Numbered from the stretch's first letter, positions 14,790 through 48,316 are shown. The stretch: 64,000 bases of DNA from Nemertoderma westbladi (GCA_032718475.1 JAUCBJ010005881.1:1-64000), one strand, 5' to 3'. Notes: generated by a model not told the origin, from the sequence alone. Program-made: numbers and translations.

Positions 14790-14918
14790 TATAGAATTAT
14801 ATTCTCTAAATGCCGTGGATTTTCAAAATTTTTATTTTATTCGAATTAACTTTGCTAAAGATTACATTAAGTCCTCATTTGTATTTGCTATATCTATTTG
14901 TACGATGATTAGTCAAGT

Positions 14919-15003
14919 GGTTCAGTAGCTCAGTCGGTAGAGCGTTGGAAATTATATGTAGTGTGTATTGATTTCGAATCCTAGTAAGTGCGAATTATTT
15001 TTT
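14919..15003 (+). ncRNA. tRNA-like Pol III module embedded in LTR U3 (second copy 27501-27585)
   Basis: TAGCTCAGTCGGTAGAGC (A box/D arm), GA(G/T)TTCGAATCC (B box/T loop), T6 run; acceptor and anticodon stems do not pair, so it is not a functional tRNA. Confidence 0.55.
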
Positions 15004-15069
15004 GTGCAGAATTTCAACTCATTTAAATTGGCCGCTACAAATTAATTGCATTTACTCGAAGTAAGGTTA

Positions 15070-15240
15070 ACCAATGAGACTGTAGTTATTAGATTGTAAC
15101 CAATGTCGTACGAGTTATATATTTGCTGGACCAATAGCTATCTTTAAAAACCTGTTAGAACTCATAGAACAATCGAGAATTTTCTCGATTGATTGTGGCA
15201 CAAATTTGGTATAAAAGGTGCGATTTCGTTCATTAGTTAT
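15070..15240 (+). promoter_or_regulatory. Putative Pol II promoter of element 1 LTR
   Basis: Three CCAAT motifs, TATAAAA 15210-15216 and an Inr-like TTAGTT ~25 bp downstream. Confidence 0.6.
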
Positions 15241-24370: not shown

Positions 24371-24902
24371 TTAGGAGTTTACAAATAGATTTCCACGTAC
24401 CTGTACACTGTAGTAAAGACAGCGGTAGAATTCCATTGTCTTTATATGTGAACATTGAGGGTAATACCCTTATGTATCACATAGGAGCGGGATTTGTAGG
24501 TATAAGAAATGGAATTATACTTGGAACTCACAATATTGAGACATTTTCGAAACTTTAGACAATCCATTTGGATTTGAAAAAATTTTAAAATTTTCTCCAG
24601 TGAATAGATTTCAGGGTACAGTCGGGTGGAACTTAAAATTAGAGAAACAAGAGAGGAAGACTTGCGAGCCTTTCTTAAAATTTTAATTAAATTTTACACG
24701 GTCTTGTTTCAATAAGTTACGTCAAAATAGACTTCCCTATATTTATTACTAATTCTTGATTGCTTATTTTCTGATAATAGTTTGGGATCAAAAAGTGAGT
24801 ATTTTAGACTCACAGCCAGTTTAGCCCAAATTCGTTTTTTATTTCGGCAAAAATTTTAGATAAGAAGCAGCGTGTCATTAAAGAAACCCTAGATCTTAGG
24901 CT

Positions 24903-26576
24903 ATGGGTAGGAGGTTAGAGCGTTGTCGAGCCAAAAAAGGCAGACGAAAACTCTCACGTCTCCTCACAACTAACTACAAACTCTGTTGTAATCCCTCTAG
25001 TAGTAATGATTATGTAACTACACCTCTAATTATGGAGAGGATGCGTGTATTGGGCTATTACGTCACCTCCAAGAGCGGTCTTACAATATTATTTAGCAAT
25101 AGAGTCGTCAGTGAATGTTTGCTTAATAACAAACGTATCGTGGAGATTACGGATGAATCACGGCAGACGCGCGCACCTATCGGTCACCTTGGTGATGATT
25201 TCGAAGTAACGACTACGATCACTGACGATCCTTTAGAGGAACTTCTTGAGATAGAAAGGAACCTCCCGAAGAAATCTCAGACGGAGATTCGACAACTTGA
25301 AGCAACAGATGCTATAGTTTGTATACAACCTTCAGAAACCTACCAACCCATAGATCCAGATGATTATGATTATAGTGTGGGAGGAAGCGCTCGACCAATT
25401 GGAGATCTTATATAAGAACGAGTGTGGTACCCTGCCAATACGATGTGTGGTAAATGTGGCGTCGCTGGACATCATTCGACCAAGTGCAGTGGAAAGCACA
25501 TTACTACGACTCAACTAATCTGTGGATGGTGTGGAGATCAAGGGTCTCATACCTTTTATACTTGCTGGAGATTTATGGCTCAATGTACTTATTGCAATAT
25601 AAAAGGGCATCGAGCATCTGAATGCCAACTAAGAGACATACCCTATGAACACGAATCTGTAAAACTCGTGAGAAAACTATTCGATGAGTGGGAAGATTTA
25701 GCCGACGAACACGTATCGGCACAAAGAAGACGATTTCCGATGAGGGCGCATCTTGGATTTTGGGCGGTAAATCCCCAAACGATGATGTCGGAAGGATACA
25801 TCTCCGCTATGCCCCAATATGACGAACTTATCGAGGTAGTCGATATTTTGCCTCACGACAGTCGATTCCGAGTAGTGCGTGAGTATCTATTACAGATTCA
25901 CCCAGACAACAAGAACACGTGGAATTTTCAGAAAGTCGTAAATCGTATCACGTATGGTGAATTTGATCGTTTTCGAACTGAAAAGCGGAATAAAGGAGCT
26001 TGGTTAACCGTCGCATGGGCGTACCGAGCCGCGTTTTACCACAAACGTATACGAGCGAGCGTATTCGAGGAAGAGGAGATCCTAGAGGCGACAAATATAC
26101 CAGCCACTCCGGTTGCGCCGTCTGCACGTCACACTCGGGAGGACGGGCAGGGTAGGATCATAAGGGTCCAGAAAGTTAGCCAACAATTAAAGAAGTCTAT
26201 TAATATAGAAGAACGCAAGGGAGTTGAGCCGACCATTCGAATTACTCGGGATACGGTATCGCTTCCTAGAGAACCAACAGGAGGATCGGGACATACACCA
26301 GCTGATCAAAAGGGGGCGCAAGCTACTCTTGGGTCTGTGTCGTCCGCTTCCCGCGCATTCCCAGACGTTTTACCAACTGTAGTGACAACTGATCGGTCAC
26401 GAGGAATCGGTCGAGGTTTTGGGATGCCAAATAGACGAATTTGCGAGGAAATAGTCGCACCGTCTCCCAACGTCCAAACGAAACCAGTGACTCGCCCCAC
26501 GAGTCCCATATCGCGAGCAAAGTGACCTGTGCGCAGTTTTCGAGGACGCGGCAGGGCTCGATCCACTAAGCGATAA
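24903..26576 (+). pseudogene. Element 1 accessory ORF: zinc-knuckle protein of unknown function, interrupted by in-frame stops
   Basis: ORFs 24903-25415 and 25422-26525 share a frame, separated by one TAA; after TGA 26523 the frame continues PVRSFRGRGRARSTKR*; knuckles CGKC..H..C, CGWC..H..C, CTYCNIKGHRASEC. Confidence 0.75.
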
Positions 26577-27371
26577 AAGGGAGGGCAAGGGTGGACGGAA
26601 GACTCGTGAGCCTTTCTTGTGAATTTGTGATTTATTTGAATTATATGTTTTATATTTAATTAGTAAGTTTTGTATTCTGGAAGAACTCATATTTAGTAAG
26701 ATTTATATTTAGTAAGAATTTATATTTTGCAAGATTTATATTTTATATTTGTGATTATTCCGAACTTATGCAATTTATATTGTTCCGAATACTATGCAAT
26801 TTATATCTTATAAGCAGTATTTGTATTTACAGTGAAATAGAAAGTAAGAGTAGATGGAAGACTCGTGGGCCTTTCTTATAGTTTCATTTGTAAAGTGTTA
26901 TATTTGTATTTAGAAAGTTTTATAGTTAGAAAGTTTTGTACTTAGAAAGACTCATATTTGTAATTATTCCGAACTTATGCAATCTACATTTAGGCACGAA
27001 AGTATTTGTAATTATTTGAATTTATGCAATATTTGAGATGCAATAGTAGATGGAAGACTCGCGAGCCTTTCTTATGATTTCATTTATTTGTATTTGTAAT
27101 TGTTTGAATTTATGCAATATTGAGATGCAATAGATTTATATTGGTGAATTTAATTTAGATTTATATTGTACTTACTTAGTAAAGCCTTAAATATGTAAAG
27201 TTTGAATTTGTAATTATTTTGTATCGAATTATTATGTAGAAAGGAAGTATTGCTTGAAATTTAATTTGTAAATATGTAAGTACGCGACGCCCTAAGTATT
27301 CTATAATTTGATTGATTATTGGTGAAAACCGTATATTTTATGCACGATAATATCCTGTTTTCATGGAGCGG

Positions 27372-29269
27372 TATAGAATTATATTCTCTAGATGCCGTGG
27401 ATTTTCAAAATTTTTATTTTATTCGAATTAACTTTGCTAAAGATTACATTAAGTCCTCATTTGTATTTGCTATATCTATTTGTACAATGATTAGTCAAGT
27501 GGTTCAGTAGCTCAGTCGGTAGAGCGTTGGAAATTATATGTAGTGTGTATTGAGTTCGAATCCTAGTAAGTGCGAATTATTTTTTGTGCAGAATTTCAAC
27601 TCATTTAAATTGGCCGCTACAAATTAATTGCATTTACTCGAAGTAAGGTTAAGCAATGAGACTGTAGTTATTAGATTGTAACCAATGTCGTACGAGTTAT
27701 ATATTTGCTGGACCAATAGCTATCTTTAAAAACCTGTTAGAACTCATAGAACAATCGAGAATTTTCTCGATTGATTGCGGCACAAATTTGGTATAAAAGG
27801 TGCGATTTCGTTCATTAGTTATCTCTCTCTATCTTTCTTTCTCAGTTACATTATTTCAGATTACATTGTTTATTGTATAATAGTTATTGTTTGATTTTGT
27901 AATAAAAGTTAGAAATACTTGTCACATCTGCCCTTTTCTATCTGTTTTATCATGCTTCACCACGGTGAACCCAACTGAGGGACAGGATGGCTGGCTAGAC
28001 ATCGGGCCGCAGCAATGAACGGGAACATCAAAGGAATGTAGACACGAGACAACCCGCAATATCATCTTAGTTATTCGCCCATCGCCTGAAAGGTTAGACA
28101 GCGTTCGATGCCTTGCTACCTAAGTATAAGACCAAAGATCGAAGGTAGAGGTAGTGACACGCTGTACGCCTAAAATTACATCTAGGGACTGTACTTTCTT
28201 AATTCAGGAAAAAACCGCAGTAGACCTTCATATTCCTACGGGGGGGAGAGGAGAGAGCTCAGGCAGAGATACTAGTACGCAGATAGGACGTAGGCACACC
28301 GGTACAAGGCATACACATTGGTAGGGTGCAGCAAACTGTACGCCTAACTCTTGCTAAGTACAGGTGCGTCTGTGACTATTTGTAGTACAACGGTGTCCAT
28401 TGCATCAGAACTTGTAGGCCAGGAGAGTTGCTGTGTTTCACCTGAATTAGGATTGTACCGTTCAGGCGGTAGGGCAGTTTACGACTAGGCGCAAATAAAT
28501 TGAGGCTAATTAGGGATACTAACATCTACCGTGTTCCCGCCGACATCCTGATAGGAAGTTACCAAGCCCACCTAGGTAACCAAAATTCTAGATAGGACGC
28601 CAGGCTAGCTATTAGTAACCGTACGCCTACTGTAGTAAACTAACACATTTCTTCTTAGTATTAGGGACCTGGTAAATTAAAATTGCCGAATTCTGGGCGT
28701 AGTATTAATCTCATGCCTGAATTTGAGTCCTGGAAATACGCAAGAGGGGAAGGAGCCTTATCATTCGTGAGTATTGGCCCTACAAGTTACAAAATTAGAA
28801 TATTCGTAAAATGCACACCGTACCCAGTAATTATATATGTGAAGGAGCAAAACTGATCTTGACTGTTCAGAATTAACACACGCGCGTTAAAAATTATTTA
28901 CATCTCAAAATATATAAAATTAACTTTTGTCCGTACTGCACTTTGCCCGCTAGTTAGACATCTCCAAATCTCTGCACCTAGCTAGCGTCTCTTTCGCCCA
29001 ACCATATAAATCACACCGCAGCAAAGTACACGAGCCCTTTAGTCCGTCAGTGAGTCAGCCTGATTTTAGGATTCGCTGCGCGGGATTTTGTTTTATCGAA
29101 GTTTGTCTGTTCGTAGACTGTTTTCTGCCTCACCGGTTATAAGGGACCAATACTGCAATATATTCGCTTACTTGGAGTTTAATGTTTTGGTGAGAAGGTC
29201 GGATTTATGATTTGATTCACAAACTTTACAGTAAGATATTGCAGGTATTGTTACTGTCTCTTCGAATTA
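27372..29269 (+). repeat. Element 1 3' LTR (1898 bp)
   Basis: Direct repeat of 14790-16688; preceded by PPT-like GGAGCGG; followed by TSD GAGAT. Confidence 0.95.
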
Positions 29270-29287
29270 GAGATAGATAACTAAACG

Positions 29288-30467
29288 TGTAAAGGCTTTT
29301 GCGGAATTAGCCGGTTATTTTCCCGGTAAAGTACTCTGTAGTTGGTTTAACAGGCATAAAAGGCCGTGTCCTTACTGTACTGGTGTTTTAGAGGACATAA
29401 AAGTCATTTCTTCTGTATGTGTACTTTAGCGGACATAATTCGCAATTTTATGACGCAATGCGCCAAATCCTCTGTAAACAGTGTAGCTACCATGACGACG
29501 GCTAACAGCTGATGCTGTACACGTGGAGCCTTTTCTTTGTTCTCTGTTCCTTCTTTGTTCGGTCGACCAATCAGAGTGTTTTTGCCTCTGTGTTAGAGAT
29601 TGTATATAGAAACTCGTGGAGTTGAGTCAGTATGTGATTTTGTCCACAGCCTACAACACAGGCTTTGGAACCTCCGTGTTTCAGTCTTTAGCCCAACATT
29701 AGTAGGCTTAATTATAGAACGTATATCTGTTATCAATCCAAACTCAATAATCATAACTTACTCACTCACTCATAACTTAACAAACCATTCATAACTTAAC
29801 ATTTTACTGCTTTTACTGTCGGTTATTCATTATATTTGTTGATGGAATATTATATTTGGAATACTGATAAATAATCAGACACCCCAATCTTCTTGATATA
29901 CTAAAGGTTAGAGAGACCGGTTACATATAACGATTGCGACTTACATTAAGTGGTTTGAAGTGAATCTAATGCTATTTTATAGGCCCTACATGTATTGTCT
30001 GTTGTTCTCCTTATATGTGACTAAAATTAATGAAGGTCGGCAGATCAGTGTGCAGCATTGTGCAGTATTGTGTATGATTGTGATTGATAACAAAGCATCT
30101 CCTAAAGAATGCGCCATATACGTGAATCTATAGCCATTCCGTTGTGTCTAGTTTAAGTCATAACTCTGTTTATATATTTAAAGCGCCACGTCCTAAAGGA
30201 ACTGTTAATATTTCCCGAAAGTGAATAATATTTGTCAGAGATTATATATATTACGATCAGTCGAATAATACAGTAGGCCTACCCCGCAATACGGTTAGGC
30301 TTCCGAATCCAGTCTCCCGGGTATATCCAGCGGGTGAATGATCGCGCATAGACTGGCTTCGGCTAATGTAGTGTATCAAATACTTGTCATAGGCTAAAGA
30401 TGATCTATCATCTAAAAGACATCCCAATTTGGCAGGTTAAACTGCTAAAGGTCTGAAAACGCGAACA
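29288..30467 (+). repeat. Element 2 5' LTR (1180 bp, TGTAA...GAACA)
   Basis: About 11 substitutions versus 46720-47899 by eye; CCAAT ~29567, TATATA 29603, Inr-like TCAGT 29627. Confidence 0.96.
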
Positions 30468-30734
30468 ATAACAGATATACCTTCTGTATTGCAGTAGGCA
30501 ATAACGCTGAAGTACCGGACAACCGGTACCTAGTAGGCCTGACTACCTAACCACCCGGACCGGTACCTACAGCAGTACAGGTACATCAGTATTATTCGAT
30601 TGTGAAATTGTATACCGGTAGGCTGTTTAAGAGATTAGGGACTGTACACCCCTTGTTTCTTTTGGAGCTTACTTATTTCTGTCAGTTTTATTTATTTGTA
30701 GGCCAGTATTGAGCAGAAGGCGTGTAAGCCTGCT

Positions 30735-31320
30735 CAGATTGTACAGACAATTTGTAGGCTAGACTGTTGTCTGACTGTTGTTAAGTCTGAAGGGACTGTA
30801 GTGTGTGTAGAGCATATGTCCGAAAAAGTACTAGTTAGGAAAGTAGGGGCTGCCAGTGCTGTGAGGTGAACCCCCCAAGAAAGAATAAGTCGTACTACTC
30901 GGTTAGAACGCATACTAACTAACCATTTCGGAGTCTGCATATATTGTAGTTTATTTAGGCTTGATAGTAGTCTGCCAGCGTTTGGTCTGTACCTTGTTTG
31001 TGTAGTTTGTATGGGTAGCGTAATAGTTCTTATTTAGATAATTTGTAGGCTGGATTTTGTCTGACTGTTGTTAGGTCTTGAGAGATTTCGGTGTGTGTAG
31101 AGTGTATGTCCGATAAAGTGCCAGTTGGGAACGTAGGGGCTTCCAGAGCTGTGAGGTAAACCCCCTCGAAAGTATAAGTCGTACTACTGGGTTAGAACGC
31201 ATACTAACTAACCATTTTGGAGTCTGCATATACCGTAGTTTGTTTGGGCTTGACAGTAGTCTGTCAGTATTTGGTCTGCATTTTGTTTGAGTAGTCTGTA
31301 CGCGTAGCGTAATATTTATT
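30735..31320. repeat. ~290-bp diverged tandem duplication in element 2 leader
   Basis: Two copies of AATTTGTAGGCT...AAGTCGTACTACT...GGAGTCTGCATAT...GTAGCGTAATA. Confidence 0.85.
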
Positions 31321-32650
31321 ATTCAGAGTTTATGCGATTATTCGCAACATTCATATCCCCAAGTTTATTCCTACAGTAATTGTGCTTGTTATATATACCG
31401 TTATAGTTAAACTAACCCCGGTACTACATCAGGGCTGCTTGGCGTAGGTAAAGACTGGTGATTTTGTGCCCCGGTCACTCCAGCAGATACCGTGGTTCTT
31501 TTAGCTGTTCAAGTATTTTTAACTACTGATTATTTGTTGTATAAGTACTTGTACCTAATTTAGGGTTTAGTGTACAGTGCTTTCCGAAGGTGATTAGTGT
31601 GTAGGCAGTATATTTGTGTTGTAAAGTGGTTAATAGGCACGTTGGTTCTGGTAGACCGCGGTAATTAACTTCTAGGTAGGAACACTCCGTGATACATAAC
31701 GTAGTACTTATAGCGCCACGGCTATAAGTCGTCAGACGGTGGTATTTTTCTATCTGGACAACGCAGTATATTTACTACTACTTATTATTTTCAAATACCG
31801 TAGTACCCTGTCCTTTGTAATAACCAGATATTCTAACCCTTTGTTAGGCTGGTTAGTAAACTTCTTGTAAAACTACCCTAAAAATTTGTACTTGTAAATT
31901 TTTGTGTTTATTTAGAGATTGTAATCTCACCTCGAATTGTACGTAATTTGTAGTATTAAGTAACTTAGGTAAATTAGAATTATTTGTTTTAGTGTCCAAC
32001 AAGTAGCACTTCACTGAGAGCGCACAGCTTCTGTGTAGTGACTCCCCCCAGAAATAATAACATTTATTTCAAATATTGACAAAACCCATTTAACGGGTAA
32101 ATATATTATAAATCAACTCAAACCGATTTATAAAATAGTAGGCCTGCCATACAACAATTAGGTCTCAAGATCAGTTAGACTACTGCTCAAATAACGGTAA
32201 TCAAGTAAAGCAAAGTAACCAAGTAACCCTAAAAATTCAGAAATTCAATTATTCTAAAATAATTGATATACTATTTACAATAGGCTTATTATATTTATTT
32301 CTATAAATTTAGGCTGAAATTATACCGGTATTCTGTAATTAATTCTAGTCCATAATTATACTTATATATACTATAAGTGTAAGCTGTATACCGGTATTCA
32401 CGATAGGCCTATTATATATTTATATATACTTGTGCTGAAATTACATACCGGTATTCTGTGACTAATCTAGTCTGTGACAATACTTATATATATATACTAT
32501 AAGCATACCGGTATTCTAATATATTATATATATATTACGCTACACTGAGTAGCAGTATCGGTAATTAATTACTAGGCTAACAGTGATACTGAATTACTAG
32601 ACTTGCTTAAACTGTAATATAGCAGTAGGCATTCAACTGTACAAACCAAC

Positions 32651-35600
32651 ATGTCCGACACAAAGCAAAACCTGTCAGATAGTCTCCTAGATACAACCAT
32701 ATGTGACCCAGACAGGAGTGTGGAACGTGTAGGACCGAAGTTCAACTCACCTCCTACTGTAAGAAAGATCATCCCTCCCGTAGTAATATCAGACCCTAGG
32801 CTAGTCCAACATCGTAGGTCTATCATAGGCACTTGGGCTCAGGTCAAGCGGGACCGAGAAGCAGCAGAACAGCAACAACCCGTGAGCCAATAACTTATTT
32901 CTCAGCGGCCCGACAGCTCCAGTAGTGCGGATACTGTAGAGCTGACACCCGAACACGGCGCAAAGATGACAGATGTGGTTTATTCGGACCCCCTTCTCAT
33001 CCTTCCTGCAGCCGTACTCACTAGGTTATTGATTGCGGTGGAAGAACACCAGATCGATTGGGCGAGAAATAAGCGATAAACTAAAGATAGTTATGCGGGA
33101 TACACAAGGGAAGAACTGAAGTCTATTGTCGAGTCGCAATGGAACTTCCCCGGACCCGGACTCCCGTTTGATTTATCAGAAGCTGCCTGGGAAGACATAC
33201 ACAGGATGGGAGTAACCAAGGAAACCATCGATCCAGCTGTGTGGAAGAGGTCCGCAGCCGGATACGTACAGGGATTCTTCAGCTCCATGGAGCGATTAGA
33301 AGAACAACTGTTTCAACAACCCCAAGGACCTCAAGAGCAGGGACAGCTGCTTTATCAAGTTAGAGAAAGAATTCTACGAATCAGGCTAATCTTATCGGCC
33401 TTTGAAGAGGCTTCTAAAAGAAGACAAGACACGTCGTTGCAAGTTGCCGTAAAGACTTGGTTTCAACGGGTGAGTCTCCAGGTGCAAGGAACGGCTCAGT
33501 GGAAAGCCCAGCTGGATGAGCGCTCAACCCATGGAGAATCAACAGATGCTACTTTTTCCCAAGTGGAAAGTGAAGCGACGGCAGAGAAACCGCATAAGAG
33601 GAATGCCATTGACATCTATCTGTCAGACTATCAACGTTTTTTAGGTGATGAAGAGTTGAGGAGAAGGCTAGATGGACTTAGCCCTAATAGTGAAGGAACC
33701 CAGCGTGTGTTGGACGCCATCGATGTGGATATGAGAGCTGCGAACCAAGCTAGATTTGATGAATGCCTCCGCATCACTAGAGTCCAAGAAGAACAAGTGA
33801 AGAAAAAACGTATAGAAGACAGAAAGACAGCGGCAGTGGCAGCAGCAGTGGCAGCGGCAGAAGCAGAAAGAAAAGCGGCAGTGGCAGCGGCAGAGGCAGA
33901 GGCAGAAGCGGAAAGAAAAGCGGCAGAGGCAGAGGCAGAAGTGGAAAGAAAAGTGGCAGCGGCAGCGGCCGAAGCGGAAAGAAAGGCGGCTATGACAGCG
34001 GCAGAGGCAGTAGCAGAAGCAGAACGGAGAGCTTCCGAAGAAACCACCCAATTAGAATTGGAAAACATTCAGGAGAATCAAGACTGCATAAATAAACAGT
34101 TAACAGCTAGTAATATGCAGATGATGAGTCGATCTACTCCCAAAAGACAGGGATATACATCATCTGAGGAAGGCGATACCACCGATACTGAAGGCGGAGG
34201 AAATAGATCTCGTCTAAGCAGATGTAAAAGAACATCCCACCGTCAGAAATTGCCTGATTTGCCCCCAGCTGTTAGAAGGCAACTAAATAACACAAACTTA
34301 GGTAGTACAGAACCCACAGACCAAATAATTAAAATAGAAAGACTCCCTACTATAATAGATGAGCCTGAAATAATTAGGCCTGTTCCCAAAGCCACCCTTT
34401 CGGTGATAGAGACACCTGTACTCCCTGAACCTACCTCTAAATTCCCTCTGCACAGCACTAAGCTATCTGTGCCCCACAGAACCACCCTTGAAAATGTTCA
34501 TGTCCTGGACTCCGAGCGAAATATTCATGATTTGTCGCCCGTTGTCCCTCATCCGCCCGCTACAACGTTGGCGCCTCCCGCTTCGGCGGTCGAGTGGGTA
34601 GATGAGGGACGACGGGAGATGGGTCTCCTGCTCGGACAGCTGAGGGAACAACATTCTCGCTCCTCTCAGCAGGCCCAGGAGATGGAGGGAACTGTGCAGC
34701 AGTTAAAGGGAACGATTAGAGAGAGTAGGTTAGAGTTGCAAGAAGTGCAGCAAAGTATCGCGTTAGAACGCGATAAATTAGTAAATACACAAAAGGGTAT
34801 ACCACCAACCCCGGTAACAATGTGTCAACCTGTTAGGTCTGAAGTATTTCATGCGCAAGGTGTGGAGCCTACACACATATATACTGCTAGCGAAGTAGAA
34901 ACTCCTATAGTGAACCCTATTAAGGGTAATTATAGACCTGTTGATAATGATATTCCCTATAGACCTGATCATAATCCGAGAAATTTATATACCGATAACT
35001 CGATATTAAATAACACGATGGCCCAAGAAAGTTTTACGCGTCAAATGGCTAGAACCGAAGTCCGTCAAGCGGTAAAGGTGGGAGAGATAGTCAAGTTCAA
35101 TGGAGAGGTCAATGGAGAGGAGATGAAATGGTTACCTTTTAATGAATATTATAAAGATAACATACAGAACTCTGTACTATCTAATGGGGAGAAACTTAGA
35201 TTCCTCATCGAGTGATTGGAAGGATCTCCCAAGTTAATGGCGTTAAAGTTTATTGGACATCCAGACGGATTAAGACAAGTTTGGGATACACTAAACATCA
35301 GGTATGGTAATAGGAATAACATAGCTAAATATTTGTATGCAAAATTAGTAGCGCCCCGAAAGTTCATTAGCAGCGGGATAATAGAGTTTTCCGATGAGAT
35401 TCAAGAGATCTGTAGACAATTAGATTGGTTAGGTAAGTCTCATGAATATCAGAGTTCTATGGTTATTGGAGCCGTGGCTTCTACTTTACCGAAGGGTGGA
35501 GTAGGTACACGCTGGGATAAGAAAGTGTTATATATGATGGAACAACAACGACGAGACCCTACCATGGCTGATCTCATGTCATTCTTAGATGGAGAAGTGA

Positions 35601-38600
35601 AATTACAGCTTCTAAAACAGTCCAGAGAGAAGACACCGGAAAACAAGGTAAGTGAGAAACCCGTTTCTAGGAGAAAGGTAACACCAGTGTGTTATACAGA
35701 CGACTGCGAAAGCCAAACTTCTCAAGGAGAGGATAGCGGGAAAGACACTGAAAGATCTTATTATGTCAATAAAATGCCTAAAGAACAGGTAAGTAAATTC
35801 AAGTCTCGAACCAATGACAGGAGAGAACAGGTAAGAAAAACTCCTCCTACGTCTCCTAAGAGAATTCAGGTGAGAAAGCCGAAGAAAGAACGAGTGTGCA
35901 CAATGTTATTCAAAATAAGGTAAGTAACATCAAACCGAAATGTGCGCTATGTGACGGGACCCACCGTTTGAATATGTGTGATGAATTCCTGAAGAAATCA
36001 TTAACGGAGAGACGGGAAGTCATGTGGGATAAGCGGTTGTGTTATAATTGCCTCAGACAAGGACACCAACGGCGAACCTGTTACTCCGACACAAGGTGTG
36101 CAAAGTGCGGTGCGAAACATCATATCTTGTTGCACACTGAATTTGAGCGAAACAGCCAGAGTCAGGTAAGTGATTCCGAACTACATGTCCAATTCAGTGA
36201 TGTGAACGACACTGACCAAAGTTCTGAGATGGAAGGATTCTATACAGATGAATTCTCCGACGAAGGTGAATCCTGTTACATGATAAATACCGCAGTGTAT
36301 CGAGCACTTACGTATGAAAAAGACACAGACAGCGACCTCACCCTAACTACTTCTGATCGACGACCATCTTGGAAAGCGCCACCTTACAATGTAGGAATCC
36401 GAGAATTTCCTGTAGTACAGGTAAGGGTCCACGGACCTAAAAGGAGTTATGTAGTGAACGCCCTCCTTGACTCCGGTAGTACAGGAACATTCATAGAAAA
36501 AGAACTAGCTGAAGACATCTTTGCTGGACAACCCAAGTTCAGAACTAAGCTAAACATGTCAGGAATTATGCAGGTTTGGAAATCTACAGTAATAGCGGAT
36601 TATTATGTAGGTGCGTTGTCCACCCCCCAGGATGAACTAGGAGAACATAGTATAAGGTCCGTAAAAATGGTGGCGATAAAGAACTTCGCTACCACCCAAG
36701 TGGAACCTTATAACTGGGATGAGGACGATTTCACCCAGCAGCTGGAAATACCTAGATTCAACACCGATTACCCTGGAGTGCAAATACTCATCGGTCAAAA
36801 CGCGCATGAAGCGCTCGAGACATTGGAGAAACGGCCCGCTCAACCGCAACCACTACAAGCTTATGCGGGAAGAACTAGAGTGGGTTGGTACTTTACTGGC
36901 CCTTCCCGTAGAACTCTCATGGAAAGATTACCGAAAGACCAGGTATATCAAGTAAGAGAATGGGAAGTCGAGGGCAGTGAGTTAGACGATCCAACTGAGG
37001 GAACACCATACTCCTCAGATAATGACGATGTCCACCAACTTTTCGATGAGGAGAATACCATCGATCTCCTTGAGGAAAACGAGACTTGGCAAAACCAAGG
37101 GAACTTATGTCAGCTCCTTCTTCCATCAGAACGAGACGACTATAACGACGAGCTTAATGACGTCATTGAACGTTGTAATGCCAAGACTCGGGATGAACAC
37201 GCCGTACGATTCTTTACTCAAGAGGCTGTAGAGCCCAATTCCTACGACAAGGCCCTATCGGTAGAGGAAGAAAGAGCCAAGCAGATCCAAGAGACAACTA
37301 CACGTTTTCTTAAAGATCAAGGTAGATATGAGATCGGTCTACCTTTCCGAAAGCGAGAACCAAAGTTCGTAAACAACAGACCCTTGGCGGAGAAAAGAAT
37401 TGCTCAACTACATCGACGCCTTACGGCAAATTCTTCAGCTAAAGAAATGTATCAAACGCAGTTGGAGAAATTTATTAGTAAGGGATATGTGGAGCTAGTA
37501 CCGGAAGAAACACTTATAACTGAGAGAACGTATTATTTAACTCACCATTACGTTCCCAAACCCGGTAAACCCCATGAGGTACGAGTGGTGTTTGACGGCT
37601 CCGCCCTCTATATGGGCCAATCCCTTAATTCTGAATTGTTACCCGGACTCAACTTACTCCAATCCTTGTTGGGAATACTCTTAAGATTAAGACAATATTC
37701 AATCGCTTTCGCCTCAGATATAGAAGGCATGTTCTTACAAGTCAAGGCGCTGGATAGGGATCGAGATAGCCTACGATTTCTGTGGTGGCCTGAAGGAGAC
37801 CTCAACCAGAAACCGGTGGAGTACTGGATGACCATCCAGGCTTTTGGGATAATCTCAAGCCCTTCAAACGCCTGTTCAGTGGTGCGTACCACTGCGGATG
37901 ACAACCGAGATGCCTTCTCTAAAGAGGTGATTGACAACATCAAGCGGGATATATACATGGATGACAATCTAAAGTCCCTTCCATCAGTCGAAGAAGCCAT
38001 TGATGTCGCTAAAGGAACGGTAGAGTGCTTAAAAATAGGTGGATTTCGATTAACTAAATTCACCAGCAACTCCCGTGAGTTTCTGGAGTCGATCCCGGTA
38101 GAAGATCGAGGAGCGAAAGACCTGGATCTAATAAAAGATGATCTCCCAGAAACTAAGACCCTTGGTTTGAAATGGGACACAGAAAGAGATATCCTGTTTT
38201 TCCAACTAAAACAGCGAGATAATCCAGTTCGGACTAAACGTATTTGTTTAAGTATCCTGAGCACTTATTTCGATCCATTGGGATTTATTAGCCCAGTTAT
38301 ATTGATTGCTCGGAGTTTAGTACAACAAATGTGGCTTGAAAACCACTCATGGGACGATCCACTTAAGGGAGAATTGTTAAAGAAGTGGATGAAATGGGAA
38401 GATTCTCTACCAGCCATCGAGAACTTTATAATTTCCCGTTCATATTTTGGTCATGTTCTCCCTACGTATTCCTATCAACTCCATGTGTTTGGAGACGCCA
38501 GCAATATCGGAATAGGTATAGTAGCCTACCTAAGGGTGGAAACTCCGGACGGAATCAAAGTTGCCTTGGTTACCTCTAAGGCATTAATAAACAATAAGTT

Positions 38601-40857
38601 GAAAGTTCCTCGAGCGGATTTAAAAGCGGCTCTATACGCTACAGCCATCGGCCGGAATGTAACAGAACAGATCGACTATCCACTGGAGAAAACTGTCTAT
38701 TGGACCGACGCTTTGCTCGTGTTGGAGTATATAACCAATGAAGTCTGTCAGTTCAGCGTCTTCGTTACCAACAGAGTAGCCATTATACTCAGTCGCACAA
38801 CGATGGATCAATGGAGACATTGCCCCGGAACGATTAATCCAGCAGACATCGCTTCCAGGGGAGCAACTCCACAAGAACTGGTTGATACTCCAGACTGGCT
38901 AGGTGGACCCGACTTCCTCTACAAAGAAGAAGAAGAATGGCCTCCTCATCTTACTACCACAGAGATTAGACAAGCCAAGGGAGTGGAGAAAGTCAAACCT
39001 AAAACTCAGGCGAGTAAATCGAAGTTATTCAAACCTATGGTAGATCTGTCTGTACTACATACTTCCGGAGACGACGCCTTGGATCAGAAACCCACAGCCA
39101 CAAATAAACTTGTTGTGGAAATCCGTGAGAAGGATTGGACATCTGGAATACCAGACGCCTCGCAAGGACTCTCACCTCTCCTGCAGAGAGCGATACATCA
39201 CTACAGTTCCTGGAATCGGCTCTGTAAGGCCGTTACATATTTAAAAAGATGTTTTCACCATCACTACTCCGGGATGAAGACCAAAAGTGATACCGCTCCA
39301 ATAACATCGGTGCAGGTCCATGTTATTAAAGATCTTCCCAAATATAAGATATCCGACAGGTTTCTGAAGGAGAAGATCAGTTATCAGGAGCATGAAGAAA
39401 CCAACAAGCAGATGCTGAGACTCCTGCAATGCTATGAGGATTCCGATAAGTATTTCCTGTTGTTGAGAAATCCGCAGATGCACTTAAGGGATCGTTTCTC
39501 TAGCACAATGATAGATGGGTTGATACGTGTTGGAGGAAGATTAACGAATGCTCCATTATCCTTTGACACTAAGTTTCCCATACTCATTAGAAATCTTGAA
39601 ATACAAGTCAAGATGATTGTAGACGTTCACAGCAAACTTTATCATGCTGGTAGGGAATGAGTTCTTAGCGAAATTCGAACTTGCTATTATTTTTATAAAC
39701 CCCGTAGAGCTCTGAACCAAGTTCTTAGGAACTGCATACCCTGTAGGAAAGCATTCAGTAGGCCTTTAACACAGCGAGAGGCAGAATTACCTAGGGAACG
39801 AGTAAGCTTCTATGAACCACCCTTTACTAATACCGGTGTGGATTTATTTGGCCCTATTGAAGTATATCGTGCTAGGACTATAGTCAAGAGATGGTGTGTC
39901 ATCTTTGTTTGTATGACTTGTAGAGCTATCCATCTCGACAGGGTGAACGATTTATCTACCAACAGCTTTCTATTAAGCTTACGACGACAGATCGCTCGCT
40001 TTGGCACTAGTAACACGATGAGATCTGATAAGGGAACAAACTTCATTGGTGCCAACAATGAAATCAAAGCTTACGTCAAAGATTGGAACCAAAGACAGGT
40101 GGACGATCAGCTACGAGTAACAGCGTCTAGCTGGACCTTCAACGCCGCCGACGCCCCTTGGTGGGGAGGAAGTTGGGAGAGATTAATAAGAAGTGTGAAA
40201 ACCGCATTTCACTTTATAGTGCCGTGCCGCGCGTATCTCACCGACGAACTTTTGCGGACGTTAATGGAGGAAATCGCCGCCTATCTCAACGAGAGACCGC
40301 TTATGCCAGTCTCATCGAGTCCCGATTCCCTGGAAGCGCTAACACCCGCGCATTTCCTACTGAAGAAACCTGTAGCCATGCTCCCACAATCGGAAATCAC
40401 AGACGGAGACGAATACTGCCGGCAAACTTGGCAACTCATGCAGTTGTTATCCCGTCGTTTCGCTGACCATTTCGAAAAACATTATCTGCCCACGCTACAA
40501 CTTCGAACTAAGTGGTTTGCGCAGCAAGAAAACGTCAGCGCTGGAGACATGGTTCTTATTGTGGATGTAGATCTTCCACGTAAGCGGTGGCAGACAGGTC
40601 GTATCATCGAGACTCACATCTCGGATGACGGTTTGGTGCGATCGGTAGAACTCGTCGTCATGCGACGTAACTTCAAGAAACCGGGAATTGTCTTCGAGAC
40701 ACAGCAGCTCAATCGCCCAGTTGGTCGCTTATGTTTACTGGAAAGGGACAGAGAACTCTCCGGAAACTATGGGAGGCAAGATACTCTTCCCACGACCACC
40801 TCCCTAATCCAACAAACATCTAGGGACTATAAATTTTATTATAATCGTTTTCTTTAA
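32651..40857 (+). pseudogene. Element 2 gag-pol (Gag-PR-RT-RNaseH-IN), disrupted
   Basis: Gag frame 32651-35923 has stops at 32891, 33077 and 35213, then a frame change near 35900; CALC/CYNC/CAKC knuckles, ALLDSGS protease, RVVFDGS, DIEGMFLQV, YMDD RT, HVFGDAS/YWTD/NPADIASRG RNase H; stop at 39658, then in-frame integrase (DLFGP, SDKGTNF, GGSWERL). Confidence 0.93.
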
Positions 40858-42410
40858 TTTTACTTAGTAGAACGTTATTTTAGCGATTATTTAGTAGATT
40901 AGTGCAATATATATTCGGGTTTATTACTTAATTACTTATATATTATATATTTAGTGCGACGGCGAGAAATAATTATTTTTCTCTTTCCTTACTGTCCGTA
41001 TTACATTACAAATACGTAATTACAGTAAGATGAAATGTCCGTACTTATTAAAGTACAATAAAGCTCCTACTATATTCAAGTATTATTGGTAAAGTAGAGT
41101 ATTAGGAATGCAAAATTCAGATCCTCGTGTCTCGGCTAAACCAAGCTCTGGGTAGACCTTGGAAACGACTTGCCTCTTCTCACTGACATTGCTTCGTGCG
41201 ATATTGCTCTCATACCGTATAGTAAATAATACATATAGTAGCGTGATGTCCTTTTAACAGTAGCGTATAACGCAAAATAAATCTGTTAAACCCTTTGACC
41301 ATCTGTAATTCTAGTCGATTAAGATATCGCGGCACCCACCGATATACTTGAAAGACAAATTCTAGAATCAGTGGTTAACGTCCCCAGACAAGTTCTGGAA
41401 TAAACTGGTGCCCATCCTAAATATTAATTATTAATATTTATAAAATCTGTCGAAATTGTAGATCCTTTAAAATTCTAGTCGATTAAGATATCGTAGCACT
41501 TACCGATACTCTTAAAAGGTCAAAATTCCTAGAATCAAGGATCCCAGTCCCCAGACACGTTCTGGAATAAAATTGTGTCTATTTAACATTAAATAATAAA
41601 ATTTACGGGAATAAATTTAAATTCATATATTTCAATGAATTTAATAAATTGTCATTTTATACAATTTATAACATTCCCAAAATTCCATTAATTAATAGAT
41701 CATGGGAGCGGAGATTCACTCTATTAAGTGTATTTGTGTGCGAGAATCTCCAATATATAGTCAATAGCCGATAAAATTCATAAAATCATATATAGAGAGG
41801 ATATTGACAATTAAAGAATTACTATTAAATAGCATCCCAGATCTGTATGCATGAGAATTACCCTAATTCTACCGCTAGCTTTCCATAATGTCACCATGGC
41901 AACAACCACGCTAGAATTAGAAGTGAGTTAAAAGAACAATAAAGGCTTGCCCCATTGAATAGCATAAGGAATAAAATAGCACATTGCTAGTATCCCAGGA
42001 TACCCAATAATAACGTGGCATTCTGGAAGGCACTGACTAAAGGACAAATGGCCCGAATATGTGCGGTTTGTGACAGTTGTGTGGAATTTGTGCGTTTATA
42101 GGTGAATGTTACTACTAAAGTGTGTTTACAGTAGCGAGTCGCAATTGTGAAAGTAGCCCTAACTCTCCAGTAAGAACCTGAAGTATATCTAAGCCTTTGG
42201 GACGGACGGTGGAGTGACTCGTGCTGGTTGTTGTGGTCGTTGTGCAGCTACGACGTTGGCGATAGGCACATCGGCGAAAGTACACCAGCGCTGAAGATCT
42301 TACACTGTCCGGGGGCAAAAGAGGGGTAGGCAGCGACGCCCGCTAGCCTAATATATAAACTCATTATAATATTGATAAACTCATAGCAGATATGACTGAG
42401 TTGATAGAAG

Positions 42411-45400
42411 ATGATCTTGGTATCAGGGAGCGATACTCTACCTTTACAAGCGTTTGTCGATAGCTTGATACGCGGCGACGCTGGTCCAACTACTACGGAG
42501 GATGATGGTCATTATATCGAACCACCAATGTCCCCGGAGCAACTTACGCGTGAATTGGATTATAGAAAGTTCACCGCTCGCTATACGCATCGTAATGGTA
42601 CGTATATGGACTTCTTAACTACTGGCCATCCTATCGATTTACACGATACGGACGACGTAGACACCGAAAGGGAAATGGTTTTATTTAAATATCATACCCA
42701 GCGGAGTCGGAACGATAAACCGAGAATAGAACACGAGAACTCTATTCGAAACAGACTCGAAAGGGAAGACGTTGAAGAGCCGGATAAACGCAGCGACTTC
42801 AACGATTATCTGGAATTCCTGAGAGAGACATACCTCAATATTGCCAGTCAACAAAATCTCGAAACTCGATATCCTCAAGGTATACATCATGACCCTATGA
42901 TAGAACTCAAACGACTCTCTTTCACTATGATGTATCTCACCGCCGATCGACCGCTACCTGTCGTCCCAGATAGCTTCGAACAGATGGAGGAATATTGTAA
43001 AACTGGAGAACGATCACCCGCGTTTCCCCTGCAGGACGTGCGTCTTTGGTATTACTGCGACGAGTGCCCTAGACCCAATCAGCAAACGGAAAGACATAAA
43101 CATCCGCGGAGACGTTGCGCTAAACACAGTTTTACACGATATACTTATGGGAGTTTCGAGCGAAACCTGTTCGACGTATCCCCTACGGTTGCTCGACTCA
43201 AACGATCCTTGAACAAACCAATGATCAGAGTTCCGGAATACTCGGTCAGACCTCCTCATTCCTCAGTTAGACCTCAGACTCTTGATCCTAATAGTATCAC
43301 GGATCCTCCCGAACTGTATTCGCTGTTCAAAGATCTAGTGTTACCCGAACAGTTGATCGGTGGCACTCCGGTAGTAGGCTCACTAGATATTCGCCAACCC
43401 TACCTAACTGGATTGGGACGCGGTCATCTAATATCGCCGTTTAACCCACACAACCGTCCCGGCTTCACCTCGATACAACCCGTTACGGAAGTCGAAGAGA
43501 GCGTCGTACGAAATGCGTTAGACGCTATTCGGCAGAAAATTGGAAAGGGAACTTACGATTGTTTGGAGAAACGTAAATTGCAACAACAAGTCCAAGCGGT
43601 GAAGGAATTAGCTTTACCCCAGTTCGAAAGAGAAATACAAAATCTCGAGGAGGACATCGAATGTGGACGAACCCACTCTTTACAAGAGTTCCTAGATGAG
43701 CGTCTACAACAACAAGCGGATGAAAATCAGCTCGAGGAGAGACATATAGAAATGGATGAGAGAGAAGAAGCAGCTTTAGCTCAACCCGAAGCTCAAATCC
43801 TTATGACGGATCTCTACTCTAAAACCATCCTTCATCCCTCGATGGTTCCCAATTTTGGAGACAAACTCTTTGCGACGGTACAACCCCAACCGGTTGATAT
43901 CAACCTAAGATCTCGAGATCTTATCGCTGACGCTCCCATGTTGCAACGTCCGCCCATCGAAGCCGCTCGTGTCGATGGTATACTCGTTGAACCTCCGGAC
44001 AATAGAGTGGATCTTGTCCGTCGCATGGTACACGATGTAAACATACGCGCTAGACCTTTACCGGACTCGTTTTATGGGATCAAAGATCACCCTTATTACG
44101 TCAACCTAACACAATATTACATGGTAAAACCGGAAGATCCTACACATAGTCTGAGGTTTCTGCCTCTCATAAATCCTCTCGATCTTGTCGAACTCGAACA
44201 ACTGCATAAACATCTGGATCAGTTAGTTAAGATAAACTCATTTCGAAAACCATACAATGTTTCCAGAATAGAGAAAGAAACAATACCTCCGTATAATCTT
44301 GATGGATTCATCAAAACTCGTTTAGTACACTGGAATCTTGACGTGTTATTCGAGGAAGAAAGAATACAACGATATGGAGATGTGGAAACATATACCACAC
44401 AATATTTAAAGTATAGAGACCTACCTAATGCTAGCGAATGCGCTACCTTGTGGCATCCTGTGGGAATGACCCTCGAAAACGCCACTAAAGAGTGGAATGA
44501 GACTCTTAACGTTATCGAGATGTATGGAGTTGTCACCTACGACAACGAAGGTAGCGTTCCGGTTGGAGAACTGGGAACTACGCGGATGATACACATATGA
44601 GGACTCGCTGGTTCTGCCCACGTATTTACTCGAGCGTGTTCCGATGTGATTGATTATTCTTTTGAAACTCTTACTGAGACACAAAGAGACTCCGACATGG
44701 ACAATTCGAGCTCGCGCAGCGTTACGTCGCCGACACCAAGCGCAAACCGGCCATGGGTATCGATGGATCGATGTTACCCCAGCCCGTGCTCGAGATGTTG
44801 TTTAACGAAAGAATCCTTAAAATCGGCTCAGCTGTTTATGGAGATCTACAAAACGACTTTCGGAATATGGAGAACATTCCATACCCTTTCGTGGATACTC
44901 AGCTGATTGCTCCCTGGGCAGAAGGCCGAGGTTTCTTCTGCACTATGTATGCCAATACACCCAGCGGCATTACTAAAGTACAACGAACCTCCATCGGACA
45001 TCTTGCCTTTCAAGAATACGGATGGAATTTCAAGGTTGGAAATCCTAAAAATTACCAACAAGTATATGGAGATCATTATTCTCGTTTATACTTTGATGGA
45101 CCATTGACCGCACCTGGCGCCGTGTATAGCTTTATGAGTGTTCCACTTCGTCCCTCCTTAGCTATATACACGATCTTTGAAAACGCAGCACTTGCCGGTT
45201 GGCTAGCCGATGTGTGCAGTCGTACCATACGCGCCCATCCCTTAATACTTGGAACCAAACTCGCCAAGTTAGATGAACACAATAAATTCATCCGCTTCGA
45301 ATGTTTCAGGCGCTTTCTGACTCCGTTCCATAACGTTGATAGTCAGTTCAAGGACCGCGCTCTGACCAAACTCAGCCTAAGAGACTCAGCTGCGGAGAAG

Positions 45401-46641
45401 CTAAACAGCGCGGGATTTGCCCTCTTTCAGGACGTTTGTATACAGAACTTACATTCATCTGTTATACAAAGACCCCGAATACCCACGGGTTATTCTGTCG
45501 TGGAAGTTCAGACAGTGGGTCCGCTTGCGGAGACAGCCGCACCTACCTCAGCTATGCAATTGGAAGACGAACCAATCTGCTTAGAGTCTGAAGCGATCCA
45601 GCCTACAGCGCCCCGGAGCAGCGATAACGATTACGTCTTGGAGTGGTATCAAGGTCCACAATGTCTCACCGCATACGATTATCGACACGCCAACTATGTT
45701 TCTCGAAAACGTTGCCGATTATGCGCATCGAGAGACCATTTCACCCCTATGGACTCAGACGTACCCTGCTCCTATTTCCACGAACAACCGATGATGGAGA
45801 TCTATTGTGCGTATTGCAGACTTAATAACTCGCATATTTTTGCAGTCTGCCCCCAATTTATGACCCAATGCCACCACTGTCAACTTAAAGGACATGCCAG
45901 TTATAATTGCCCCTTTAACCGCGATTTAGAAAGCGTAGATGAGATGATTACCCTGCGCTACATCCGAGCTTGGGAAGCGAACGCGGATTTACATTGTGAG
46001 TCACGCCATCGCTACTACCCTGGACGCTCTTACGAGGGAGTTTACGCATTCCATCCTTATTTATTCGCGTCTGTGGAACAAAAAACACGCACACCGAGTT
46101 ACGAACTAATGAAGCGTGTTGGTGAGTGTATTTCAACCAAATTTGTTCGAAAATATCTTAGGAACGTCAATCCTAACGATATTACTTCATATCATTTGAT
46201 CAATTTCATCCGTCAAGACCCTGAGTATGGCGATTTATTTATCAACTCGCACCCTGAGTTACAGGAAGTATCTCGACGGCCCTACGAATATCGAGCCCGA
46301 GAACGCGAGCTGGAAAGAACCATTAAACCAAGAAGTTTCTCACCACTCACGGTCCGCCTACCGCCATTGTCCAGACGACCCGTCAAGGACCCGTAGGAGC
46401 TGCTGTCCTAAGACACGCCCTAAAGGCTGTTAGACCTCGCTCCACTGAAATTGATATCGATCAACCAGGTACCTCGACCGGCGGATACAGCGATCGTAAT
46501 CCTAAACCTTCTGATGCAATTGTATTGCACCCTTCACCCAGGAGCTACAGCCCTCCTAGTAAAGTGGCTCGCCCCAAAGAGAAAAGGACTCTTGCTAACC
46601 TCAAAAAACTGCGTAAACGCCGTCCGCGTAAGAAAGACTAA
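42411..46641 (+). pseudogene. Element 2 accessory ORF: unknown N-terminal region, DEDDy 3'-5' exonuclease-like domain, triple zinc knuckle and basic tail (broken into pieces)
   Basis: 729-aa ORF ends ...YGVVTYDNEG (ExoI-like) at TGA 44598; the 547-aa ORF has LPQPVLEMLFNERILKIG...GD (ExoII-like), FVDTQ, SIGHLA and PLRPSLAIYTIFENA (ExoIII-like), then knuckles; a third frame (46327-46641) ends KKLRKRRPRKKD*. Confidence 0.7.
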
Positions 46642-46719
46642 CTGTTTAGAGTATTTTTATATTTTAGAAACTGTGATTGGTTATATTTTATAGACTTAAA
46701 TCCCATTTTCTGGGTGCGG

Positions 46720-47899
46720 TGTAAAGGCTTTTGCGGAATTAGCCGGTTATTTTCCTGGTAAAGTACTCTGTAGTTGGTTTAACAGGCATAAAAGGCCGTG
46801 TCCTTACTGTACTGGTGTTTTAGAGGACATAAAAGTCATTTCTTCTTTATGTGTACTTTAGCGGACATAATTCGCAATTTTATGACGCAATGCGCCAAAT
46901 TCTCTGTAAACAGTGTAGCTACCATGACGACGGCTAACAGCTGATGCTGTACACGTGGAGCCTTTTCTTTGTTCTCTGTTCCTTCTTTGTTCGGTCAACC
47001 AATCAGAGCGTTTTTGCCTCTGTGTTAGAGATTGTATATAGAAACTCGTGGAGTTGAGTCAGTATGTGATTTTGTCCACAGCCTACAACACCGGCTTTGG
47101 AACCTCCGTGTTTCAGTCTTTAGCCCAACATTAGTAGGCTTAATTATAGAACGTATATCTGTTATCAATCCAAACTCAATAATCATAACTTACTCACTCA
47201 CTCATAACTTAACAAACCATTCATAACTTAACATTTTACTGCTTTTACTGTCGGTTATTCATTATATTTGTTGATGGAATATTATATTTGGAATACTGAT
47301 AAATAATCAGACACCCCAATCTTCTTGATATACTAAAGGTTAGTGAGACCGGTTACATATAACGATTGCGACTTACATTAAGTGGTTTGAAGTGAATCTA
47401 ATGCTATTTTATAGGCCCTACATGTATTGTCTGTTGTTCTCCTTATATGTGACTAAAATTAATGAAGGTCGGCAGATCAGTGTGTAGCATTGTGCAGTAT
47501 TGTGTATGATTGTGATTGATAACAAAGCATCTCCTAAAGAATGCGCCATATACGTGAATCTATAGCCATCCCGTTGTGTCTAGTTTAAGTCATAACTCTG
47601 TTTATATATTTAAAGCGCCACGTCCTAAAGGAACTGTTAATATTTCCCGAAAGTGAATAATATTTGTCAGAGATTATATATATTACGATCAGTCGAATAA
47701 TACAGTAGGCCTACCCCGCAATACGGTTAGGCTTCCGAATCCAGTCTCCCGGGTATATCCAGCGGGTGAATGATCGCGCATAGACTGGCTTCGGCTAATG
47801 TAGTGTATCAAATACTTGTCATAGGCTAAAGACGATCTATCATCTAAAAGACATCCCAATTTGGCAGGTTAAACTGCTAAAGGTCTGAAAGCGCGAACA
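46720..47899 (+). repeat. Element 2 3' LTR (1180 bp)
   Basis: Direct repeat of 29288-30467; preceded by GGGTGCGG; followed by TSD AAACG. Confidence 0.96.
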
Positions 47900-48316
47900 A
47901 AACGTTTACATAACGACTGTGGGATAGTTAACTAAACGTTTACATAACGGCTGTGAGATAGTTAACTAAACGTTTACATAACGGCTGTGGGATAGTTAAC
48001 TAAACGTTTACATAACGGCTGTGAGATTGTTAACTAAACTATTACATAACGGCTGTGAGATAGTTAACTAAACGTTTACATAACGGCTGTGGGATAGTTA
48101 AATAAACGTTTACATAACGGCTGTGAGATAGATAACTAAACGTTTACATAACGGCTGTGGGATAGTTAACTAAACGTTTACATAACGGCTGTGGGATAGT
48201 TAACTAAACGTTTACATAACGGCTGTGAGATTGTTAACTAAACTATTACATAACGGCTGTGAGATAGTTAACTAAACGTTTACATAACGGCTGTGGGATA
48301 GTTAACTAAACTAAAC
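47900..48316. repeat. 32-bp satellite, right part
   Basis: Same unit as 13500-14789, in register after removing both elements and their TSDs. Confidence 0.95.

Follow-up and report, generated by a model that had tools for sequence, protein, structure and literature searches.

The window analyzed here, a stretch of 64,000 nucleotides of Nemertoderma westbladi DNA (GCA_032718475.1 JAUCBJ010005881.1:1-64000), includes an 18.6-kb long terminal repeat (LTR) retrotransposon that carries an accessory gene, split into two pieces, between pol and the 3′ LTR. By its sequence this is a DEDDy-like exonuclease gene, which differs from the canonical members of family PF01612 in the last Asp and in scoring below the curated cut-off. 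The LTRs of the element start with TG and end with CA, differ by 11 mismatches and no gaps over 1180 bp, and are flanked by a 5-bp target duplication; the insertion is thus recent. The paired repeats, the target duplication and the order protease, reverse transcriptase (RT), RNase H, then integrase, accompanied in Pfam by Peptidase_A17 (expectation value, E, 3e-35), DUF5641 (E 2.5e-20) and DUF1759 (E 2.9e-5, just under the cut-off), are those of BEL/Pao elements, and on this domain content the host of the exonuclease domain is an LTR retrotransposon of that kind. The family is abundant in the public runs of one organism, as judged by summed contig depth only, and 30 of 30 bins of the element were covered in all four public runs examined. 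Summed contig depth, which is not copy number, falls over 42.9-46.1 kb in two of the runs. The internal region of this element and that of a neighboring one close with a short G-rich sequence ending in GCGG (46700-46719 and 27352-27371, respectively) rather than with a long polypurine tract, and an overlapping frame of 104 amino acids (46327-46641) with a strongly basic, nuclear-localisation-like tail, blank in Pfam, adjoins the 3′ LTR.

We infer that the two pieces of the accessory gene make up one protein of about 1330 amino acids. Neither Pfam nor NCBIfam had a match over the open frame of about 700 amino acids at 42408-44500, which includes a Cys/His cluster near 43055-43130. An earlier reading of this DNA (the original prediction) had placed a DEDDy-type domain across the junction of the pieces, and its five motifs, the TGA at 44598 and the Asp and Glu of ExoI (44541 and 44547) are present where claimed. 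The ExoII region reads LPQPV...VYGD at 44774-44845, with its Asp (44843) following an LL...K.G motif, and FVDTQ and SIGHLAFQEYG are found at 44888 and 44990. The canonical YxxxD of ExoIII is altered, with the Tyr present and the Asp replaced by Glu. A frame change was also confirmed, but it had been put at 44660-44680; since the second frame does not open before 44678 and is needed by 44774, it must fall between 44678 and 44773, either at the right-hand end of that interval or slightly beyond it. The alignment to an RNase D profile may point to an alternative ExoI at FETLTE, a sequence without Asp located just before the frame change.

Five profiles were built from bacterial DEDDy proteins (WRN-like, 51 sequences; NrnC, 36; RNase D, 12; PolA, 5; and all 104 combined), leaving out 4 of the first 60 loci, which had no protein; the label WRN-like rests on the best PDB match of the group, mouse WRN exonuclease. 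When the whole window was scanned in six frames (2538 tiles), the exonuclease locus ranked first with three of the five profiles. The RNase D profile scored 19 bits there (E 9e-5) versus 2.6 elsewhere in the window, the combined profile gave an E of 0.015, and the WRN-like profile ranked the two pieces first and in the correct order without reaching significance (E 2.8-27); the NrnC and PolA profiles, the latter made of five sequences, missed the locus. With X at the breaks, a read-through translation outscored every one of 1000 shuffles under three profiles; under the remaining two, 247 and 137 of the 1000 shuffles did as well as the real sequence. Most of the signal is supplied by the ExoII region. 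When about 40 inserted residues were allowed for ahead of the LP helix, the WRN-like score rose to 18.6 bits, and under the same optimisation none of 60 shuffled first pieces reached the real score, whether the whole piece, the part after DxE or the DxE part was shuffled. Both halves of the first piece thus add to the score, and the DxE strand and the stop-bearing stretch therefore belong to the domain. NCBIfam returned only two matches for the second piece, both of them RNase D models covering residues 35-81 (E 0.0022 and 0.0091), and the ESM Atlas placed PF01612 clusters first for the same piece (0.89), with its 10 best family matches all in agreement, a result taken as a lead only. The piece before the stop had low recognition in the Atlas and no exonuclease match.

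A full HMMER search of 1.84 billion protein representatives returned a single match (E 9.5e-5, 28% identity), P0002, an intact singleton of 648 amino acids from a 9449-bp ENA contig. Its layout is that of the window's protein, an exonuclease followed by three zinc knuckles; it differs in having no long N-terminal part and in being known here from the protein alone, not as retrotransposon-borne. From ExoI to DTQ it matches the combined DEDDy profile (89.7%, E 1.9e-6), the corresponding values for the WRN-like and RNase D profiles being only 13% and 18%. The C-terminal half of P0002 matches that of the window's protein (0 of 5000 shuffles as good) and includes the ExoIII motif, for which this homologue is the sole source of support; the ExoI of P0002 is in register with the window's DNE, a piece that by itself is not significant (1974 of 5000 shuffles as good). 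Across the 36 rows of an alignment neither the ExoII Asp nor the ExoIII Tyr varies, and P0002, which also keeps DxE, has the same Glu in the column of the last Asp as the window's protein (E 45179). The substitution had been noted in the original prediction and, because both members share it, probably characterizes the family and does not reflect decay.

The structural check named in the original prediction gave a divided outcome. A single-sequence AlphaFold model of the second piece was uninformative (predicted local distance difference test, pLDDT, 33.6; no Foldseek match). The model of P0002 based on the 36-row alignment reached a pLDDT of 75.7, had the expected order of strands and helices, and matched EXD2 best in Foldseek (E 4.5e-7), but it is partly circular and indicates compatibility only, since 34 of the 36 rows are known bacterial DEDDy enzymes. 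The closest affinities found were to RNase D models, plant PF01612 clusters and EXD2. Several results count against the identification. The NCBIfam matches lie far under their whole-protein cut-offs; Pfam, the other check that had been named, found no exonuclease in either piece; P0002 itself reached only 11.9 bits against PF01612 (E 0.2; cut-off 23.6); and ExoIII sub-profiles from the bacterial enzymes were not significant and gave no support for that motif. In addition, PDB sequence searches gave nothing significant (RNase D appeared in one at E 2.2, fourth of the four matches listed). Word-seeded protein searches gave no matches, and no related loci were found in the metagenome and viral contigs searched. 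The RNase D models of NCBIfam, the window-scan profiles, the PF01612 clusters of the Atlas and the columns shared with the homologue nevertheless back a DEDDy-type domain on an LTR retrotransposon. We consider it very probable that the domain is DnaQ-like and belongs to the RNase D/WRN/EXD2 branch, with the acidic residues D-E-D-E plus Tyr. This retains one part of the WRN/EXD/MUT-7/Nibbler type originally proposed; a specific tie to MUT-7/Nibbler or to small RNAs is not borne out, RNase D models and generic PF01612 being the best matches.

Table 1. Coordinates of the features of the BEL/Pao element, its accessory gene and the neighboring element in the 64,000-nucleotide window.
Feature	Coordinates	Strand	Remarks
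Whole BEL/Pao LTR retrotransposon, 18.6 kb	29288..47899	+	TG...CA ends; 5-bp target duplication; sits in 34-bp satellite
5′ LTR, 1180 bp	29288..30467	+	1169/1180 identical to 3′ LTR
Putative self-primer segment in 5′ LTR	29713..29733	+	13 nt exact at 29721-29733, extends to 20 pairs
Primer-binding position directly 3′ of 5′ LTR	30468..30488	+	no TGG start; complementary to LTR segment
gag region with DUF1759	32651..35923	+	interrupted by stops 32891, 33077, 35213
pol: protease, RT (YMDD 37954), RNase H/Peptidase_A17, integrase, DUF5641	35860..40857	+	stop at 39658
Accessory open reading frame (ORF), first piece, 730 aa	42408..44600	+	about 700 aa without family match, then ExoI strand; closes at TGA 44598
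ExoI motif VVTYDNEG	44529..44552	+	D 44541, E 44547
In-frame stop TGA within exonuclease domain	44598..44600	+	
Accessory ORF, second piece, 572 aa	44678..46396	+	remainder of exonuclease, linker, three zinc-knuckle-like motifs, C-terminal domain
Interval containing frame change	44678..44773	+	part of an insertion, about 40 residues long, that bacterial WRN-like enzymes lack
ExoII region LP...LKIG...D 44843...DTQ	44774..44902	+	strongest profile signal
ExoIII motif PLRPSLAIYTIFENA	45143..45187	+	Y 45167; E 45179 in column of last Asp
Three zinc-knuckle-like Cys/His motifs	45713..45910	+	Pfam zf-CCHC_3 E 0.015; common to P0002 and neighboring element
3′ LTR	46720..47899	+	pairs with 5′ LTR
Second copy of self-primer segment, in 3′ LTR	47145-47165	+	
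Neighboring BEL/Pao-type element	14790..29270	+	RT/RNase H and exonuclease undetected
Self-complementary primer position of neighbor	16689-16710 with 15635-15657		sequence unrelated to that of the main element
Knuckle ORF of neighbor	25416-26525	+	related to that of the main element

The element has a second unusual feature at its primer site. Directly downstream of the 5′ LTR, where the TGG of a tRNA end is lacking, the first 13 bases match the complement of nucleotides 29721-29733 within that LTR exactly. Among 3672 start positions the primer site is the only one to reach this length, and this gives sequence support to the self-primer that the original prediction had presupposed. The duplex predicted between the two segments has 20 pairs and an energy of -22.8 kcal/mol (next best site, -12.2), which 6 of 301 control starts matched. 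Tf1-type elements are recognized by at least 10 bp after the 5′ LTR that are complementary to it, and here 13 are, exactly and from the first base; the self-primer rule of PMC6317226, as given in its passages (a 10-bp match, 0-5 bp from the LTR), likewise applies. By that survey 12% of the plant elements included were predicted to self-prime (PMC6317226). No Rfam match was found in 14000-48500 and no tRNA gene in the 64-kb window. When folded from an RNA start at 29721 the predicted duplex forms, with pair probabilities of 0.54-0.95.

We tentatively propose that in working copies the accessory gene encodes a DEDDy-type 3′-5′ exonuclease with three zinc-knuckle-like motifs that would most likely trim element RNA into the primer for RT, a reading whose chance of being correct we place below even. 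The accessory protein would be packaged with the element RNA, and the knuckles may help the LTR segment and the primer site to pair. The single-stranded 3′ overhang, produced by a cut or else representing the 3′ terminus of a transcript that contains an LTR, could then be stripped by the nuclease, which would stall at the duplex and leave a 3′-OH that RT could extend into U5. The processing of 3′ ends of structured RNA by RNase D-type enzymes, as described in PMC5408684, counts in favor of primer trimming. A bolder version, which we regard as unlikely, is that this BEL/Pao lineage swapped tRNA priming for self-priming in which an exonuclease makes the primer. The 3′ terminus of the genomic RNA, with the copy of the segment at 47145-47165, would fold on the primer site and be trimmed by the DEDDy-knuckle protein to the edge of the duplex, with neither a tRNA nor an RNase H cut. 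If true, it would be the first defined job for the DEDDy cargo common to LTR elements and Terminons.

The case against primer trimming has several parts. Tf1, by the title of Levin (1996), uses RNase H to make the cut that generates its self-primer and, since Tf1-type elements self-prime in that way, an exonuclease is in principle unnecessary. With an RNA start at 29630 the predicted pair probability falls to 0, so that the duplex hinges on the start site. Of the 15 joints listed in DNA contigs, 4 bridge deletions that remove 2.5-2.8 kb of the accessory gene, the exonuclease with it (42757-46497), which means that exonuclease-less derivatives exist as DNA; they could be complemented in trans. 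The neighboring element has a self-complementary site yet gave no exonuclease signal in the six-frame profile scan, and when helix length is the measure its primer signal is weak, with 15 of 130 control starts as good. Finally, the Glu in place of the last Asp may weaken catalysis.

This last point is also where the next explanation begins, namely that a DnaQ-fold domain with little or no catalytic activity serves, like EXD1, Egalitarian or Maelstrom, as an RNA-binding module and acts together with the knuckles to package, localise or shield the RNA of the element. Both known members have Glu for the ExoIII Asp, the active bacterial enzymes give ExoIII no support, the assisted P0002 model has Exd1 and Egalitarian among its Foldseek matches, and inactive DEDD derivatives are described in PIWI-interacting RNA (piRNA) pathways in PMC5408684. 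However, two proteins with only 28% identity have both retained the Tyr and an acidic residue at all four positions, which looks like selection on a metal site; we consider an inactive module somewhat unlikely.

MUT-7, Nibbler and EXD1 act in small-RNA pathways, and the exonuclease could instead counter silencing by the host, degrading or mis-trimming the 3′ ends of piRNAs or small interfering RNAs, or their precursors. The abundance of the family in the runs of one organism, again by summed contig depth only, would agree with this, as would the small-RNA roles of the host relatives MUT-7 and EXD1 mentioned in PMC5408684. The sequence matches and the Foldseek rows listed have no special affinity to MUT-7/Nibbler, which speaks against the idea. 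Mature piRNA ends are 2′-O-methylated and shielded by PIWI, which is a further difficulty. In rotifers, according to the passages of PMC5408684, DEDDy ORF3s have no clear link to copy number, and on balance an anti-silencing role appears doubtful.

We find equally doubtful that the enzyme polishes or proofreads the 3′ ends of cDNA, removing mismatches or non-templated bases and so aiding strand transfer and the upkeep of an unusually long genome. The element is 18.6 kb long, and DEDDy ORFs are present in the giant Terminons as well; single-stranded DNA is a substrate of WRN/DnaQ relatives (PMC5408684), and the proofreading of nidoviral ExoN has been tied to genome growth (PMC7968707). Against these parallels, the best curated matches are to RNase D, an RNA enzyme, the PolA proofreading profile, of five sequences only, misses the locus, and the rotifer LTR elements with DEDDy domains, whose LTRs are short, are nowhere called giant in the passages of PMC5408684.

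The stop at 44598 and the frame change look like decay of this copy because gag-pol has four further stops (32891, 33077, 35213 and 39658). The five stops compare with about 2.6 expected from the LTR divergence (P about 0.12, a rough value on the assumption that stops arise from 4.5% of substitutions). In three of four public runs the contigs lack the stop at 32891, the fourth having no cover there, and a 420-nt contig over 44625-45043 with 57 differences has a single gap at an unplaced position that fits an indel at the frame change. It is very improbable that the gene is not decayed and that a 128-nt intron, from GT 44551 to AG 44678, removes both lesions. The two sites are compatible in phase, the stretch before the AG is rich in T (41% versus about 25% in ORFs), and ORF3s are usually made from spliced messages according to PMC5408684. 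But the acceptor is GAG and not YAG, omitting the stretch adds no profile score (5.8 versus 6.0 bits) whereas retaining it reaches 18.6 bits, its shuffled versions never equal the real score (0 of 60), P0002 has coding sequence in register there, and the copy is decayed elsewhere; since the stop-bearing stretch belongs to the domain, an intron is argued against. Equally improbable is a chance resemblance of the motifs in a domain that is not DnaQ-like, which the blank or non-significant Pfam and PDB sequence searches, the low pLDDT of the unaided model and the failure of the Atlas to recognise the first piece would fit, but not the agreement of four independent comparisons (Atlas, window scans, P0002 and NCBIfam) on the same family in the same place, nor the catalytic columns retained by P0002.

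The neighboring element has LTRs of 1899 bp with 27 mismatches and TA...TA ends, a 5-bp duplication, and one uninterrupted ORF of 2295 amino acids with gag, protease and integrase, in which neither RT nor RNase H was detected by Pfam or by motif order. By its sequence it is a non-autonomous element with an intact frame that retains its integrase, and without RT it must borrow functions. The two elements share the triple zinc knuckle followed by a domain of about 100 amino acids (25281-25940 and 45545-46210; 26% identity, E 1e-18); this region had no significant family match, and the same knuckles occur in P0002. At the neighbor's primer site there are 8 exact pairs, 11 with G-U, at -21.8 kcal/mol, an energy matched by 5 of 130 control starts; swapping primer sites and LTRs between the two elements gave -12.7 and -15.4. 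The neighbor's LTR is unrelated to that of the main element, yet it has the same anchoring at the primer site. A 34-bp satellite array (13486-14789, 29271-29287 and 47900-48311) holds both elements, 17 bp apart, which hints at satellite targeting. The rest of the window includes 22-bp satellite arrays at 48273-50454 and 58451-59199, inverted flanking repeats at 50454-51330 and 57803-58451, and, at 60417-61916, an ORF of 500 amino acids with RVT_1 and DUF6451 that represents a fragment of a non-LTR retrotransposon.

The DEDDy exonucleases of retroelements have been known since 2017 without a demonstrated role. The BEL/Pao host, the fusion to nucleocapsid-like knuckles and the self-complementary primer site make a concrete, testable substrate, and it is the combination with this site that makes the role of DEDDy cargo directly testable. 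If the link between exonuclease and primer holds, it would add a third route into reverse transcription to the two that use a tRNA or a self-primer cut by RNase H, and would extend self-priming to a third LTR superfamily; if it fails, a further superfamily of retrotransposons would still have captured this enzyme class independently.

DEDDy domains are reported from other Gypsy groups by the curators of Repbase, and the Caenorhabditis elegans element Cer7 reportedly encodes its own primer RNA. Within the titles, abstract openings and passages covered, which leave subscription journals and Repbase Reports outside, DEDDy accessory ORFs in LTR retrotransposons were already on record in 2017, and no DEDDy domain or self-priming in BEL/Pao, nor the combination of BEL/Pao host, knuckle fusion and self-primer, was found in print; BEL/Pao is not named as self-priming in the self-priming literature so covered (e.g. 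PMC6317226). BEL and PBS (primer-binding site) have no whole-word matches in PMC5408684. Further related literature includes PMC6431247, PMC5718144, PMC6338049, PMC3601003, PMC4600332 and PMC13524379.

Like the cellular PF01612 enzymes (RNase D, EXD2, the WRN exonuclease, MUT-7 and NrnC), the domain has the order and spacing of ExoI, ExoII and ExoIII, the ExoII Asp and the ExoIII Tyr; unlike them it scores far under the curated cut-offs, has insertions before the LP helix and before ExoIII, has Glu for the last Asp, and has no SxW. The primer site, which can pair with the 5′ LTR of the element itself, resembles those described for the self-primed Gypsy elements Tf1, Tf2, Tj1, sushi and Tcn1 and for the Copia element TAR. 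In Tf1 RNase H reportedly makes the cut, and here the putative self-primer segment may or may not be the 5′ end of the transcript. DEDDy domains are also carried by the Terminons (Athena/Penelope-like) and by some Dada DNA transposons, which belong to other element classes, the domain of Dada lying inside the transposase (PMC3706591, in the part covered).

The closest parallel is found in rotifers, where the LTR elements Juno1/2 and Vesta2/5, as well as Terminons, carry DEDDy ORF3s (Rodriguez, Kenefick and Arkhipova 2017, PMC5408684, from whose passages the following comparison is drawn). The functions suggested there, 3′-end processing of element RNA and a role in silencing, had their activity untested, and they anticipate in general form both functional proposals of the original prediction. 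The rotifer elements have LTRs of 159-551 bp and a dUTPase, whereas the present one is of the BEL/Pao kind with LTRs of 1180 bp, and, unlike the rotifer ORF3s, its domain sits in a protein of about 1330 amino acids with three zinc knuckles. The acidic set is DEED in the rotifer ORF3s and D-E-D-E by alignment here, a comparison made by description only. As in Juno and Vesta, an RNase D-like DEDDy exonuclease is carried in an extra ORF downstream of pol and has one acidic residue changed to Glu (PMC5408684), and the exonuclease of the main element would, as far as can be told, work like the rotifer DEDDy ORF3s.

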